Assembly: GCA_038227875.1 (NCBI GenBank)
Contig: JBBRPR010000035.1
Coordinates: forward strand, 22,336 to 86,335
Length of the DNA stretch: 64,000 nt
Source of the DNA: Planctomycetota bacterium
Lineage (GTDB): Bacteria; Planctomycetota; SZUA-567; H5-PLA8
Direction of reading: 5' to 3'
Below, piece after piece: positions 806 to 64,000 of the stretch (its first letter is position 1; every line of letters begins with the position of its first letter). The position numbers and the translations under genes were made by a program. Under the pieces are notes generated by a model. The model had not been told where the DNA came from, searched no databases, and saw only the letters and a list, made by a program, of their open reading frames with translations.

Positions 806-1753
806 ATGGCAGAAATCGACAACCTTCGCTACACGAAGATGGCCCTCAATACGGGCTCGGGCGCCATGCCTGCGCTTGGATTTGGCACTTTGATTCCCGA
901 TCCGGTTGCAACCAAAATCGCGACCAAGGCGGCTCTGGAGGCGGGATTTCGCCAGCTCGACGCTTCTGAACGTTACCGCAATGAAAAGGAAGTCGGCGAA
1001 GCCATTCAGGACGTGTTCCAAGCGGGTAAGATAAAGCGCGAAGACGTGTTTATCGCCACGAAGCTCTGGAACAACAATCATCGCCCTGAACGCGTCAAAC
1101 CGGCCTTCGAGGCCAGCCTCAAAAAACTCCAGCTCGATTACGTTGATCTCTATCTCATCCACACCCCTTTTGCATTCCAGCCCGGAGACGAGCAGGACCC
1201 GCGCGATGCGAACGGCAAGGTGATCTATGATCAAGGCGTCACGTTGCTGGATACGTGGAGGGCGCTCGAGCGCCTGGTGGACGAGGGCAGGTGCAAGGCC
1301 ATCGGATTATCCGACGTGAGCCTGGAACAGACGAAGGCGATTTTCGATGCGGCCAGAATCAAGCCCGCGGTCGTTCACGTCGAGTCTCACCCATATCTGC
1401 CCCAGTGGGAGCTCTTGGATTACTGCAAAAAGAATCGCATCGTGTTCCAGGCTTTTGCGGCACTGGGACACAGTAGCGAGCCCAACGTGCTGGAAGACCC
1501 TGTCGTCACCTCCATCGCCCGGCGAGTCCACAAGACTCCCGCGCAAGTCTTGCTCGCGTGGGCCATTCAGCGCGGCACCGCACTGCTGACCACCTCCAAG
1601 ACTCCCAGCCGAATCAAGGAGAACGCGGACGTCTCCACCCTTCCTCAAGACGCCATCCGGGAGATCAGCGAAGGAATCACGACACGGGTCAGGTTTAATG
1701 CCGTGGTTGAGACCGGCATTCCCGGGTTCATTCCGCGGGAAAAGAAAGCTTGA
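806..1753 (+). CDS. Aldo/keto reductase
   Basis: MPALGFGT, D...Y.NEKEVG, REDVFIATKLWN, LDYVDLYLIH motifs. SD GAGGAGG upstream. Confidence 0.95.
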   Translation: MAEIDNLRYTKMALNTGSGAMPALGFGTLIPDPVATKIATKAALEAGFRQLDASERYRNEKEVGEAIQDVFQAGKIKREDVFIATKLWNNNHRPERVKPAFEASLKKLQLDYVDLYLIHTPFAFQPGDEQDPRDANGKVIYDQGVTLLDTWRALERLVDEGRCKAIGLSDVSLEQTKAIFDAARIKPAVVHVESHPYLPQWELLDYCKKNRIVFQAFAALGHSSEPNVLEDPVVTSIARRVHKTPAQVLLAWAIQRGTALLTTSKTPSRIKENADVSTLPQDAIREISEGITTRVRFNAVVETGIPGFIPREKKA

Positions 1754-59554: not shown

Positions 59555-59818
59555 TGCAAGTTTTGTCAGGAGAACTCTAGGACACATTGTGCGCGAAATC
59601 GTGGTCGCAAATTTGCGACCACGAAAAACCAAGCGATCGGGGTGAGTATTAGGTCGCGCGCGCCGATTCACTCTTTCTCGTTCGTCGTTCTGAACTCCCC
59701 GCCGCCCCTCCGTGAGTTGACTTTCCTCCTCAATCAATTATTTCTCTTCACTTCACATTATTAATGCGTCGCACGTTTTACACGTCGACGATCCCTTCAT
59801 TAATTGAGGATTGCAGTC

Positions 59819-61318
59819 ATGTTCAAATCGTCTCTTCGCGTCGCGGCTGTGGGTGGATTGCTCTGGTTGGGCATGGTCAGCGCGGAGGACGCTCCAGCTC
59901 CGGTTCCGGCTCAAAATGGGAGTACAAAAGATAGTACGACTCCCGCAACTGCACCGGCATTAAAATCGACTCCAACACCCGCCCCGGCGGCCCCGGCCGC
60001 TCCCGCGGTATTGCCCGACGACTTGAAGGACGTCACGAACCCCGATTACCTATTCGAACTCGCGCAGGTCCATCTGCGCTTCAATGGGTTCGATCGGGCC
60101 GAGCCGCTCTTCCGCTTCGTCGCCGAAAAAGGCAAGGACGGTCAGCAGAAGACGGCCGCTCATGAAGCACTTGCGAATTTGCTGCAGAAGAAGAACGACG
60201 TCAAAGGCGCCACCGCGGAACTGGAAGCAGCGGTCGCCGGCGCGTCGACGCCCTTCGACAAGGGGCGCATTTCGCTGACTCTCGCCCAGAACTACGTCCG
60301 CGCCAGCGATTGGGATAACGCGGAAAAGCTGCTCGTGGATGTCGCAATGACCGATCCGGGCGTGCAGAATGGCCGCTGGCTGCAGCAAAGCGCGCTCTCG
60401 CAGCTGCCACAGGTCTGGAAGAACAAACCCGGACACGCCGACGCATTCATCAAGCAGACGGAAGACGCGTACGCTAAAAATCCCACCGACACCGCGTTGA
60501 TGGAACGGCTCTCCGATCTCTACAGCAACGTCAAACACGATTACGCCAAGTCGGCGGAGCTCACGGAGAAGCTGCTGCCGCAGCGCCCCGACGACCGCGG
60601 CCTGCAGTACAAGCTCGCTGCGCTTTACCAGCAGAGCCACCAGTACGACAAGGCCGTGGACCTGGCCAAGAAGATGATGACCGGTCCGAACGTCACCAAG
60701 GACGATGCGCACAGCCAGAGCTACCAGATCGGCAACCTGCTGATTCAGGCCGGGAAGAAAGACGAGGCCATCGCGTGGATGAAAGAATCGTTCGCCAAGG
60801 ACGCGGCGAGCGGCCGCGACTACTGGATGCTGGGCATGTTCTACGAGCAGGCCGGACTGCACGCGGAAAGCGAAGCGGCGCTGGCGAAAGTCCAGGAACT
60901 GGCGAAGACGCCCAACGAAAAAGCCGACGCAAAAATTCTGACCGCCGAGTTCGCTCTGCGCCATCGCGACCTGCCGAAGGCCGAAGAAGCAGCCAATGCC
61001 GTGCTCGCGGAGTTCAAGGACAATCAGAACGTGACGATGCGCGCGAACATGGTGCTGCAGCAGGTGACGGCGCAGAAGAACGCGCTGGCAGCCAAGCCCG
61101 CTCCGATCAACATCGAAAAGATCGGACCGAAGCCCGCGCCCGCGCAGCCCGTGGCCGGACCGGCGCCCGCGCCGACTGCGCCAGTGGCGGGACCCGCGCC
61201 AGCCCCTGCGCCCACACCGGCTCCAGCACCCGCACCGGCTCCGGCGCCCGCTGTTGCGCCAGCACCAGCACCGACTGTGGCTCCTGCACCGGAAGCAAAG
61301 GTGGAAAAGAAAGAGTAG
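59819..61318 (+). CDS. Secreted TPR protein with Pro/Ala-rich termini
   Basis: Signal peptide, TPR-like helices, (PA)n tail. Confidence 0.85.
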   Translation: MFKSSLRVAAVGGLLWLGMVSAEDAPAPVPAQNGSTKDSTTPATAPALKSTPTPAPAAPAAPAVLPDDLKDVTNPDYLFELAQVHLRFNGFDRAEPLFRFVAEKGKDGQQKTAAHEALANLLQKKNDVKGATAELEAAVAGASTPFDKGRISLTLAQNYVRASDWDNAEKLLVDVAMTDPGVQNGRWLQQSALSQLPQVWKNKPGHADAFIKQTEDAYAKNPTDTALMERLSDLYSNVKHDYAKSAELTEKLLPQRPDDRGLQYKLAALYQQSHQYDKAVDLAKKMMTGPNVTKDDAHSQSYQIGNLLIQAGKKDEAIAWMKESFAKDAASGRDYWMLGMFYEQAGLHAESEAALAKVQELAKTPNEKADAKILTAEFALRHRDLPKAEEAANAVLAEFKDNQNVTMRANMVLQQVTAQKNALAAKPAPINIEKIGPKPAPAQPVAGPAPAPTAPVAGPAPAPAPTPAPAPAPAPAPAVAPAPAPTVAPAPEAKVEKKE

Positions 61319-61319
61319 A

Positions 61320-61508
61320 TAGGCCCAGCTGGATTCGAACCAGCGACCAAGGGATTATGAGTCCCGATTCTCCCTCTATGAAGATTTTTCCAACATAGAG
61401 TCAACATAGAGTTTTTGCATAGAGTCCGGCACCGCTTTCTTTCAGCTCGTTCCGGCCTTGCCGCCGATGAGCTTGTGTAACATCGAACAGACCTCCGAAT
61501 GCAAAATT
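61320..61508 (-). mobile_element. Miniature tRNA-integrated element or remnant: att-like duplicate of the tRNA 3' part plus arm-like repeats
   Basis: 61320-61359 is identical to 61512-61551 and continues AGTCCC (= exon 1, 61795-61800). CAACATAGAGT x2, CATAGAGT and an inverted CATAGAG lie inside. Confidence 0.7.
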
Positions 61509-61827
61509 TGGTAGGCCCAGCTGGATTCGAACCAGCGACCAAGGGATTATGCAGGAAGCCTTGGCTTTCGCCGGCCGATCACTTCCTCGGACTATGCCTT
61601 CGCCCGTTCTGGGCGGCTCGCCGTCTAGTCTCTACGCCTTCCCGGATTGCGCCGGGCTTGGTTCGGCGTTGGCCTGCTTCTTTCGAAGTTTAGCGTTCGC
61701 CGAGTTTGACGAGCTACTCGCCGGGCATTCCTGCCTGGCGGACCCTGACTGTTTCAGCATGAGCGCTTTCGCGCTGTTAGCCTGACAGCCCTTAAGTCCC
61801 CTGCTCTCACCGCTGAGCTATGGGCCC
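61509..61827 (-). tRNA. ileX: tRNA-Ile2 (CAU, lysidine type), intron-containing; exons 61827-61795 and 61551-61509
   Basis: Spliced sequence GGGCCCATAGCTCAGCGGTGAGAGCAGGGGACT|CATAATCCCTTGGTCGCTGGTTCGAATCCAGCTGGGCCTACCA folds as a full cloverleaf. C4-G69/C5-G68 pairs and overall likeness to E. coli tRNA-Ile2. Confidence 0.9.
61552..61794 (-). ncRNA. Group I intron (IC3/Azoarcus-like), 243 nt, no ORF
   Basis: Core GTCAAACTCGGCGAA...AACGCCGAACCAAGC...GTAGAGACTAGACGG...GAAGGCATAGTCC. P7 GACTA/TAGTC, IGS GGTCC pairing exon GGACT, terminal G. Confidence 0.93.
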
Positions 61828-61972
61828 AACCGTATACTCTTGTATCCGAACCGGCGCGCGCGCTCAAGCTGGAAGCGCGCCAAGGACTCGCGACGAGTTT
61901 GAACATTCGCGAAATTGTTGTTACGTTAATCCTTTCCGCTACATCGGCAGGTCGTATCGACGAGGTTGGAAT

Positions 61973-63680
61973 ATGAGTTCTTCCGAAGACGCTCCTCTTG
62001 ATGCCAAACTGCAGGCCGCGCATGCGCCGATACAAAGCGGCTACGGACAAATGGGCGAAAGAGCAGGAAAAATGGGATTCAACCAGAGCGTTCTTGAAAG
62101 CCATTCTCGAGTGGCGCCAGCAGAACAACTATCAGGATTTTCAGAAACACCTTCAACAATTGCTTGGCGTCCGGGAAACAAGGGTTGACCAGTATCTCGC
62201 CGCCGCTCGATTCGCGGCCGAACCCGTTCCGGTTTTGCCGGATGGAGGCAACGTCCGGATCATCGATCTCGAAAAACACGTCGAGTGCCCTACAGTTTCG
62301 CAAATGGCCCAATGTCATTCGCTGTTGAAAAGCAAAGACAAGCGCAAGCAACTCGCTGCCAGGCGGGCGCTGCTACTGGCCATCAACGGTGAAAAACTGA
62401 AGTCGGTCAAGAATCTTGAGAAAACCGTCAACAAGCGGCGGTTTGAATACACGATCAGAGGACTCTCGGCGGCTCCAGACGACGCGTTGCGCGTGATTGC
62501 AACGTTTTTGAAAGAACTCGTTGCGCTCGGAGACAAGCAAGCCTTGTCGATCTTGAATTCAATGAAGATCGCCGTAGCGACCGGCGGTAAGGTCGAGGTT
62601 GCTCTAAAGGGAGTTTATAAAGGCCGGGTGGATGCCAATGTTGACTTGGCGAAAGAGTTTGTGGCGCCACATCCCAACGACGAAGCAGTCACTTTGTCAG
62701 ATCAAAAGGAACTTGCCCAGATTCATTGGTTGCTTGAAGGCGGCGTGCCGGCGCCGAAGAAGCCTTTAGCCCGCAAAGCGAATCGAGAACCCGGTGTATT
62801 TGATCAAGTTTTGATGGATCGAAATCGTCGTATCCAAGAGCGGGGTCGGCTCATTTCCTCCTATACTGATGACGCAGCCCTGCCAATCTTCACCGGAAAG
62901 GATTCGCTGGAAGCTATGCTGAACGGACTTCTTCCTAGTTGGGAAGGTCCCGAATCGCAGACTTTCCGATTCATTACGTCCGCATCTTTTGACGCCGCGG
63001 ACGCTCCTTTGCAGTTCGGAGACGATCTTTCCCATTACGACAAGGGAACCCAAGGAAAAAGAATCGGCTCATTGATCTTTCCTTTTAAGACAACGGGTAA
63101 GCATCGCAGTGACAGAGAGTTTCAATGTTTCGTTGAAAACGGAACTGTCACAACAATGATCGAATGTGCCTTAAAACGATGGGGGGCTCATGTAGAACCA
63201 ACTTTTGATTATGCGGATATTGTAGCTGAGTCGCAGGCTGACGCTCGTGAGCGATTCGAAGAGGTGCTTAAAATCTTAAAACGATCTTTTGCTGACACTC
63301 ACGTCGGATTCTTAATTTTTCCGCGCTTACCGCAGGGAGCGGTCGAATCACGCTTGCTTGCTGAACGCGGCAGGACCAAAGCGATTGAAACCTACGAAGA
63401 ATCTGTACCTCACATTGATTTGGCGCGCTTTACTGACGAATTCTGTAAGATGTACTCTGTTGTGCCCACAACTATTGCGCACGAGTCCATTCGGAGCGCG
63501 TATGACAAATTAAGAAAGCAGCTCAATGGTGAGCCTACCGAGTCAGAGCTCATTCGCATGAGTTGGTCGGTGGCATGGAAAACATTGAAGAAGATGAAGG
63601 AGTTCAGGCCAATTATTCACTCACTTGAGTCATGGAATAAGGCCAATGAGTTGAAAAGCCGTAACGATGCTCATTTGTGA
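61973..63680 (+). CDS. Low-GC hypothetical protein, probably frameshifted near 62027 (main ORF 61998..63680)
   Basis: 560-aa open frame, visibly more AT-rich than its neighbours. SD GAGG plus ATG 61973 are in a different frame. Confidence 0.6.
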
Positions 63681-64000
63681 TACCTCAGGGGTGTCTTTGT
63701 CGCAGTGAAGAATACATGCTGACAGGAAGAGCACTTTCGTTTGTAGCCCAATTCTTTCTGATCCCATTCGACAATCCTTATTTTTCGAGACTTACATGAA
63801 GGGCATTTGCACGCCTCGGCTCGTTGCTTCGGTGCGGCCTCAGGAAATGGTACCGCATAGCTGTAAACGGCGGTCGAAAACTGGAGCGGAGGGCGGGCGA
63901 AAAACGTAGCACTCTGCCCAACGTACTGCTTCCTGCTGGAATGTCTATTCCGCCTGGTGAGACGACTATTTAGTTTCGGATTTAGAGGGCTCGTCGCCGC

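Follow-up and report, generated by a model that had tools for sequence, protein, structure and literature searches.

The window analysed here is a stretch of 64,000 nucleotides of contig C35, from a Planctomycetota metagenome-assembled genome (MAG) of 9.34 Mb (176 contigs, 88% complete, 4% contamination). Towards its end lie a tRNA gene split by a group I intron and, beyond a short spacer, a partial second copy of the same tRNA; a chromosomal gene stands on one side and what appears to be the edge of a mobile island on the other. The features of this region, with the attachment-site (att) and arm assignments as predicted, are as follows:

59804..61318, plus strand: gene for a TPR-repeat protein of 504 aa (an ORF matching 14 TPR-type Pfam families), in the chromosomal flank and convergent with the native tRNA 3′ part
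61320..61365, minus strand: putative attR, the 3′ part (positions 28-73, without CCA) of the host's intronless tRNA-Ile2(CAU), as an exact spliced-form copy
61352..61365, minus strand: 14-bp common core GGGACTCATAATCC, tRNA positions 28-41, common to attR and to the putative attL on contig C31
61366..61508, minus strand: predicted P arm of 143 bp, with three direct ACTCTATG and one inverted CCCTCTATGAA (61372-61382)
61509..61551, minus strand: 3′ exon of the island tRNA-Ile2(CAU), positions 34-73, with an encoded CCA, as read from the printed sequence
61552..61794, minus strand: group I intron of 243 nt between U33 and C34, assigned from Rfam, fold and covariation
61795..61827, minus strand: 5′ exon of the island tRNA, positions 1-33, identical (33/33) to the orphan 5′ half on C31
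61998..63680, plus strand: island ORF of 560 aa belonging to no family (no Pfam, PHROGs or PADLOC match)
63671..64000, minus strand: partial ORF running off the contig end, with a weak zinc-ribbon signal, every match being under the curated cut-offs
63860..64000, no strand: contig-end assembly repeat, the final 139-141 nt being common to the ends of contigs C13, C71, C96 and C156

Read on the plus strand, 61320-61365 is the reverse complement of tRNA positions 28-73, with 46/46 nucleotides exact in direct slices of the sequence, in a repeat search and in a string search of the whole assembly; exactness over 46 nt rules out chance. Forty of the 46 nucleotides correspond to the 3′ exon (61512-61551) and the final six (61360-61365) to the end of the 5′ exon (61795-61800). 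Hence, the copy reads through the ligated junction GGGACT/CATAATCC, which is not contiguous in the intron-bearing gene (all parts on the minus strand). A spacer of 143 bp (61366-61508) separates the copy from the CCA of the split tRNA(CAU) gene; the copy itself has no CCA and begins 2 nt past the TAG stop (61316-61318) of the convergent TPR gene. An earlier note on this DNA had reported both an exact spliced-form copy 143 bp beyond the CCA and its position, lacking CCA, against the convergent TPR stop, and we could confirm both, the latter with a 2-nt gap after the TAG. When the 46-nt piece was compared with 5,426 E. coli genomes, the best matches were annotated as tRNA-Ile (86-90% identity over 42-44 nt), indicating that the split gene is of the tRNA-Ile2 type with a CAU anticodon. 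ARAGORN, run without intron search, left the window without a tRNA call, and Rfam reported nothing there at its gathering score. A weak Rfam tRNA match over the copy and spacer (23.7 bits, gathering score 29) can be put down to the real 3′ part together with a chance D-arm-like stretch.

The insert between U33 and C34 has the features of a group I intron. In E-value mode, Rfam matched Intron_gpI (RF00028) to 61616-61715 on the minus strand with 22.9 bits (E = 0.0017; gathering score 50). The match covers model positions 48-158, and the alignment spans P3-P8 with an AGACUA-type J8/7; the working threshold for the group I model in the preprint by Williams is 18-20 bits (10.1101/2020.01.27.920355). 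In the minimum free energy fold, G29-U33 pairs with GGGUCC at intron nucleotides 50-55 (window 61740-61745), giving a P1 that places a U33-G wobble at the 5′ splice site, and the intron's last base, at 61552 directly before C34, is the omega-G. Since spliced-form copies of the tRNA exist, the intron boundaries are unambiguous. The intron is short (243 nt) and contains no endonuclease gene. A pattern scan with one genome per species identified an insert at the same site in similar tRNA(CAU) genes at 11 loci, nine of Burkholderiales type and two in Planctomycetes MAGs; within 6 kb, none of the 11 has a partial tRNA copy, and none has a homologue of the two integrase families tested. In an alignment of the window intron with six of the same-site introns, 15 of 39 consensus pairs keep pairing through two-sided changes. 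The intron is predicted to be self-splicing. Among 40 relatives searched, each listed tRNA match was intronless and none covered the intron part of the query, and a search of 400 other genomes of the phylum with the intron DNA returned only two matches, one a tRNA-Arg(UCU) intron and the other coding DNA, neither being related to the tRNA-Ile2 intron.

The missing 5′ part of the displaced tRNA lies on a second contig, C31. The minus strand of C31, at about 5127-5087, reads as tRNA positions 1-41 with the exons joined and with no mismatch to them; beyond position 41 the DNA is unrelated, and about 155 bp from this orphan 5′ part begins an intact integrase ORF of 494 aa (C31:3447-4931, minus strand). 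The ORF matched PHROG_1 (E = 4e-25) and PF00589 (26.6 bits, E = 6e-6, cut-off 27.1). Its candidate catalytic residues, R322, K363, R449-H450 and Y481, are invariant across six family members (five homologues aligned with it), and a sequence search of the PDB returned no match. In the whole assembly, the tRNA is represented by its complete intron-bearing gene, a single orphan 5′ part (positions 1-41) and a single orphan 3′ part (positions 28-73). These two orphan parts overlap by 14 bp, with the DNA beyond each unrelated to the tRNA, and the 14-bp core occurs exactly twice in 9.34 Mb, both times on the minus strand: in the attR on C35 and at C31:5089. The putative attL ends at tRNA position 41 and the attR starts at position 28, and ARAGORN called no tRNA at either.

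The two contigs also share repeats in the DNA next to the core. The window spacer has CAACATAGAGT repeats at 61391-61401 and 61402-61412, and a third repeat, CATAGAGT, at 61418-61425; on the minus strand these include three direct ACTCTATG at most about 60 nt from the core (reverse complements of 61394-61401, 61405-61412 and 61418-61425). The C31 arm, from the core to the start of the integrase, contains three more ACTCTATG in the same orientation: two stand immediately ahead of the start codon, and the other is 4 nt from the core. Thus the two arms, of about 150 nt, hold 6 of the 49 genome copies of ACTCTATG, and on both contigs every one of the six is on the minus strand. The 12-mer ACTCTATGCAAA is present in three copies in 9.34 Mb, against 0.4 expected from composition; the C31 arm accounts for two of them and the window arm for the third, on the same strand. 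As a sequence pattern, this fits what would be the P and P′ arms of one attP after integration. Because the arm repeats are on the same strand, the order would be C35(+), island, C31(+), that is, TPR gene, attR, island, attL and C31 chromosome, and we infer that the ends of C35 and C31 are the two ends of a single island. The earlier note had read the copy as an att-like duplicate left by a tyrosine integrase that crosses over in the anticodon stem-loop, had derived it from an intronless allele, had taken the CATAGAGT repeats for arm-type sites and had suggested a search for an integrase with similar sites. The search found the C31 tyrosine integrase, with the same rare repeats in its arm; the same-strand repeats shared by both arms support the reading as arm-type sites, and the other two proposals are likewise supported.

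The copy is most likely the attR of a larger island, with the 143 bp as its predicted integrase-binding P arm. In the structural model that we propose, and regard as highly probable, the island, by means of its tyrosine integrase, would have entered the host's intronless tRNA-Ile2(CAU) gene at the anticodon stem-loop. The attP would match the host gene over the 14-bp core only (tRNA positions 28-41) and, since identity is limited to this core, neither junction would rebuild the tRNA. The attL, on C31, would begin with tRNA 1-41 and continue into the P′ arm and integrase gene, and the attR, at window 61320-61508, would join the P arm to tRNA 28-73. Integration would destroy the host gene, and the complete tRNA-Ile2 of the island, 143 bp inside attR, would supply the tRNA.

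The position of the intron may matter to this arrangement. The intron sits in the middle of the core, so that the DNA of the spare gene has no contiguous 14-bp core; the spliced RNA would give a normal tRNA despite the split DNA. An intronless spare gene would present a perfect core in direct orientation 143 bp from attP, and intramolecular recombination between attP and the spare gene would cost the island its P arm and leave neither the gene nor attP intact. A split core would keep the island integrase, and also other anticodon-loop integrases, off the spare gene, and hence the intron would act as a shield against the integrase. On balance, we consider the whole account, including this protective role of the intron, to be probable. 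Our most general suggestion is a tentative one: that a split core hides a replacement gene from the integrases of its own island and of rivals while the RNA matures normally, which may help to explain the loop position of bacterial tRNA introns. Since attL and attR both keep the core, excision should remain possible, rebuilding the intronless host gene. The intron is therefore not a device that "locks in" the element, as had been suggested, because attL and attR have an intact 14-bp core and only the tRNA gene of the island is split. Similarly, the 190 bp had been taken for a tiny or collapsed island; instead, this stretch is most probably the P arm beside attR, with the island on the other side, reaching to the orphan 5′ half on C31.

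We compared the locus with those of relatives. Among 17 genomes of the family, integrase relatives (E ≤ 1e-40) were found at 20 loci in 9 genomes. Seventeen of the 20 loci adjoin an intact tRNA, nine with its 3′ end facing the integrase (the classical arrangement) and eight with its 5′ end (the mirror arrangement). The three exceptions are the window island; L050, which has arm repeats and in which no tRNA piece was seen; and L052, which has an attP-like site, a tRNA 3′ part with direct repeats on both sides. One relative, G008, has an intact intronless tRNA-Ile2 with an integrase 41-43% identical just downstream and, 30.8 kb from the tRNA-Ile2, a 28-73 copy that has three direct repeats at about 24 nt from its core. 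On that contig there is also an orphan 5′ half (1-38) 34 kb upstream, beside a second, mirror-type integrase. Thus tRNA-Ile2 is a busy landing site in this family. The repeats at the G008 attR are built like those of the window spacer, suggesting that the 143 bp are a normal P arm and not an island.

An exact scan of metagenome contigs for the chromosome-attR junction gave 0 matches, and neither an empty site (attB) nor a circular junction (attP) was detected in metagenome scans or in sequencing-run unitigs. Loose ends at 61364/61365 in the sequencing runs are mixed tRNAs of other organisms, and no empty-site allele was singled out. The flank proteins of both contigs had no match within 1.5 kb of the tRNA at 19 relatives' loci, the ABC1 kinase of the flank was not found in five relatives at 1e-30, and TPR homologues in relatives sit far from the tRNA-Ile2 gene. 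The flanks are non-syntenic in family relatives, and synteny is uninformative at such divergence. The comparison with relatives proposed in the earlier note gave intronless alleles and a classical island (in G008), but no empty site.

A metagenome scan for the arm-core pattern picked out four loci. Two of them, L043 and L045, match by chance within coding sequence, and a third, L042, is an AT-rich tRNA junction with no relation to the window; the only related locus is L044. On a contig of 25.4 kb, L044 has both the split tRNA and the 28-73 copy of the window, separated by about 130 nt of spacer. Its likeness to the window is a module of 554 nt at 88.6% identity that ends on both sides, with unrelated flanks: upstream of the tRNA are a different integrase (PF00589, E = 3.9e-14) and a DUF3102-like gene, and downstream of the copy is a LacI-type gene. 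Within the module, the two introns differ at 10 positions, including compensatory changes within a hairpin, while the arm-repeat block is near-identical, the tRNA-proximal half of the spacer has diverged and the CCA is absent. We detected no attL within the 6 kb examined. The presence of the module at the edge of mobile DNA in two chromosomal contexts fits an island end joined to the tRNA 3′ part of each host, and does not fit a vertically inherited collapsed island. In sequencing run X4, the L044-type intron contig had a depth of 20.2, compared with 4.7 for the flank contig, which hints, from one 371-nt unitig only, that the element is commoner than that junction. Viral contigs gave 0 matches to the intron-tRNA junction and 0 to the arm-core pattern, and the integrase profile found only four distant relatives among them (25-35% identity).

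At least 7.7 kb of the island can be seen (window 61366-64000 and C31:1-5086), encoding the tRNA, the 560-aa ORF, the zinc-ribbon-like fragment, a helicase of 1089 aa and the integrase. The helicase matches HamB of the Hachiman system over its full length (PADLOC, 1270 bits). A search for HamA (PF08878) gave no match in the MAG, and likewise none in control genomes. The 560-aa ORF has one partial paralogue, 44% identical, on contig C116. No phage structural or lysis genes were found in the 7.7 kb of island seen, the middle of the island being unassembled. With HamB present and phage genes absent from the 7.7 kb, the element looks like a defence island, judged by its gene content.

The exons of the island tRNA are identical to the host fragments (33/33 and 46/46), and the mature sequence is the same as the host's. 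ARAGORN found no other tRNA of this sequence in the MAG; there are two different tRNAs with a CAT anticodon, on C25 and C112. It also predicts a tRNA-Ile(UAU) elsewhere in the MAG, and hence the spare tRNA-Ile2 gene may be non-essential. We had considered the encoded CCA as a mark of foreign origin, and dropped this since the L044 copy has no CCA.

Both C35 and C31 stop in repeats of 139-141 nt that are common to many other contig ends; hence, the island was not assembled as one piece and its middle is absent. In the probable source run, a 212-nt unitig spans 61330-61541, starting in the copy, crossing the spacer and ending in the 3′ exon, with zero differences, at a depth of 11.1 versus 13.4-14.3 in its neighbours. 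This speaks against an assembly collapse, which the earlier note had proposed to check with reads, although the check shares its data with the assembly and is not independent of it. An artefact, with C31 and C35 stemming from two separate organisms or strains or with a chimeric path from copy to spacer to tRNA, would be in keeping with a MAG of 176 contigs and 4% contamination and with the repeats that terminate both contigs. Nevertheless, we consider it very improbable, since the source-run unitigs cover the path without differences and at even depth (the same non-independent check), the same path is found on the independent metagenome contig L044, and C31 and C35 share identical tRNA pieces and a 12-mer absent elsewhere. 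At 88% completeness and 4% contamination, there may be a second, unassembled attR or a binning error.

We considered three further readings of the locus. The split tRNA could be the native gene, the 190 bp a tiny or collapsed island and the C31 junction a separate event. A direct repeat of the 3′ part, placed downstream of the intact tRNA, is indeed how islands are classically recognised, and classical islands of the same integrase family lie at the same tRNA in G008. However, the C31 junction would then need an extra attR, which is absent from the assembly, whereas the arm is single-copy by unitig depth (11.1 versus 13.4-14.3) and the rare repeats of the 143-bp spacer recur in the C31 arm. 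In addition, L044 repeats the short spacing and the arm sites between unrelated flanks, where collapse or vertical inheritance fails, and the "attL" of such a mini-element would have an intron-split core. A native split gene is therefore improbable. Far less probable still is an event at the RNA level, with the copy serving as a reverse-splicing target or decoy for the intron if co-transcribed. The copy does contain the GGACU that pairs with the guide sequence of the intron, but this follows simply from its being the ligated junction; a recombination junction fully explains the copy, and fragments of the same type are found at intronless tRNAs in relatives.

The remaining reading keeps the island layout and differs on the intron: the captured tRNA-Ile2 would already have had it, and the split core would have no selected function. 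Bacterial tRNA group I introns are usually seen as neutral passengers. Homologous introns at U33/C34 are found at the 11 loci that, within 6 kb, have neither a partial tRNA copy nor an integrase of the tested families, so that capture of an already split gene would give the same picture. On the other side, the exons are identical to the host's own tRNA halves (33/33 and 46/46), and no intron was found in the 40 relatives searched, with only the two unrelated matches among 400 other genomes of the phylum. Moreover, the intron lies inside the 14-bp core; at no other site would it abolish the perfect attB look-alike that would otherwise stand 143 bp from attP. The exon identity and the rarity of the intron in relatives would speak for more than chance, without being proof. 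We regard capture of a split gene without selected function as rather unlikely, and prefer the account in which the intron protects the replacement gene.

These results correct the annotation of the locus: a small repeat becomes the edge of an island with a defence gene that would destroy and replace an isoleucine tRNA gene. They also suggest that tRNA-dependent integration, so far seen in actinobacteriophages, reaches an island without the look of a phage in a different bacterial lineage, and they give a bacterial tRNA group I intron a concrete candidate role, protection at the DNA level from site-specific recombination. Full-text literature searches found no paper in which a tRNA group I intron is said to protect an att core or is connected with tRNA-dependent lysogeny.

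Classical tRNA islands and prophages, as reportedly described by Williams in 2002, have an attP with the tRNA 3′ part and include an anticodon-loop class. Like them, the window island would cross over in the anticodon stem-loop, has direct arm repeats flanking the core and encodes its integrase next to a junction. In contrast to them, the attP identity ends at position 41, the integrase junction is an orphan 5′ half, and the intact tRNA of the window is a separate complete gene inside the island. A classical island fills the space from the intact tRNA to the displaced copy and has its integrase beside the intact tRNA; here, that space is just 143 bp of non-coding arm DNA.

The classical classes of bacterial tRNA introns in the anticodon loop are Leu.3Ug, Arg.5Ug, fMet.2Ug and Ile2.5Ug (10.1101/2020.01.27.920355). 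The window intron resembles bacterial tRNA group I introns in its anticodon-loop site and in the bases at -1 (U) and omega (G). It is of type "2Ug" (loop position 2, after U33), whereas the classical Ile2 intron (Azoarcus type) is "5Ug", in a comparison that covers the classical classes; the preprint adds 17 new ones. Unlike the genes of classical tRNA introns, that of the window intron adjoins an attP on a mobile island.

An archaeal study ties the integration of elements to tRNA gene disruption (Sugahara et al. 2012, PMC3293823). The likeness is in a recombinase-encoding element that separates an orphan fragment of the tRNA 5′ part from a full copy with an intron. The archaeal introns are spliced by proteins, and the model of that study proposes that introns are gained through integration, whereas the window intron is a group I intron that splits the att core of an element-borne replacement.

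The closest known system is the tRNA-dependent lysogeny of actinobacteriophages, with its short core, a tRNA that is not rebuilt and an element-borne tRNA. In this system (Guerrero-Bustamante & Hatfull 2024, mBio, PMC10865867), a tyrosine integrase uses an attB in a host tRNA gene, no functional tRNA is rebuilt at attL or attR, and some of the phages target tRNA-Ile2-CAT. The window island has the same combination of a tyrosine integrase, no tRNA rebuilt at either junction and a tRNA of its own. It differs from the actinobacteriophages in that it carries HamB, has no phage genes in the 7.7 kb seen and has a host that is not an actinobacterium. A further difference is that its replacement tRNA has a group I intron splitting the core; in PMC10865867, the word "intron" stands only in the title of a reference. 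What is new here is short-core integration into a tRNA gene together with an element-borne replacement whose core is split by an intron.

The 11-mer CCCTCTATGAA is present in exactly two copies in the assembly of the source MAG (G000), one near attR in the window and one near the orphan tRNA 5' half on contig C31, the proposed attL end of the island:

Window 61372-61382: first copy of CCCTCTATGAA, 6 nt inside attR
G000:C31:5132-5142: second copy, in inverted orientation, on the chromosomal side of attL, separated by 3 nt from the 5' end of the orphan tRNA half

Motifs of the CTATGAAAA type, which are related to CCCTCTATGAA, also flank tRNA-Ile2 junctions in three relatives, G008, G009 and G013. 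On the chromosomal flank of attR, the TPR protein's C-terminal tail is encoded at window 61123-61290; this segment is built of imperfect 12-, 18- and 33-nt tandem repeats (families D1, D3 and D4), which give a Pro/Ala-rich low-complexity linker.

In 8 of the 17 tRNA-adjoining integrase loci of the family (L051, L054, L056, L057, L059, L062, L067 and L068), the integrase gene is located at the 5' end of the tRNA and is transcribed away from it. In G008, the region G008:C1 about 90023-124126 also includes an orphan tRNA 5' half (positions 1-38), at a distance of 34 kb from the intact tRNA. Together, the 5'-end layout and this orphan half suggest a mirror-image mode of integration, with the tRNA 5' half contributed by the element. 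As for abundance, the contig carrying the intron tRNA of the type found at metagenome locus L044 has a depth of 20.2 in the small soil run X4, which was compared with window 61317-61830, whereas the 371-nt contig carrying the chromosomal junction of that element has a depth of 4.7; this weakly suggests that the element outnumbers this particular insertion in the run.

The part of the island on C31 includes a defence gene, immediately preceded by an assembly repeat:

G000:C31:147-3416, plus strand (locus L021): full-length HamB helicase of the Hachiman system (PADLOC PDLC00174, 1270 bits)

A PF08878 search found no HamA in the MAG, and likewise no match in the control genomes. The gene for this partner may be located in the part of the island missing from the assembly, or an insertion may have separated it from HamB. 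Both contig ends (window 63860-64000 and G000:C31:1-140) are repeats of 139-141 nt, common to four other contig ends for the window and to seven for C31, with the first 41 nt of C31 common to four further contig ends. These repeats probably represent the termini of multi-copy insertion sequences, the internal parts of which are absent from the MAG.

Across the whole G000 genome, ARAGORN predicted 81 tRNAs, including tRNA-Ile(UAU), tRNA-Ile(AAU), one tRNA-Pyl(CUA) and two tRNA-SeC, and part of this set may be false calls or element-borne. Elsewhere in the phylum, a different genome has a group I intron that scores well (RF00028, 56.1 bits) in a tRNA-Arg(UCU) gene, 3' of the anticodon (L048, G162:C528, about 1455-1649, minus strand).
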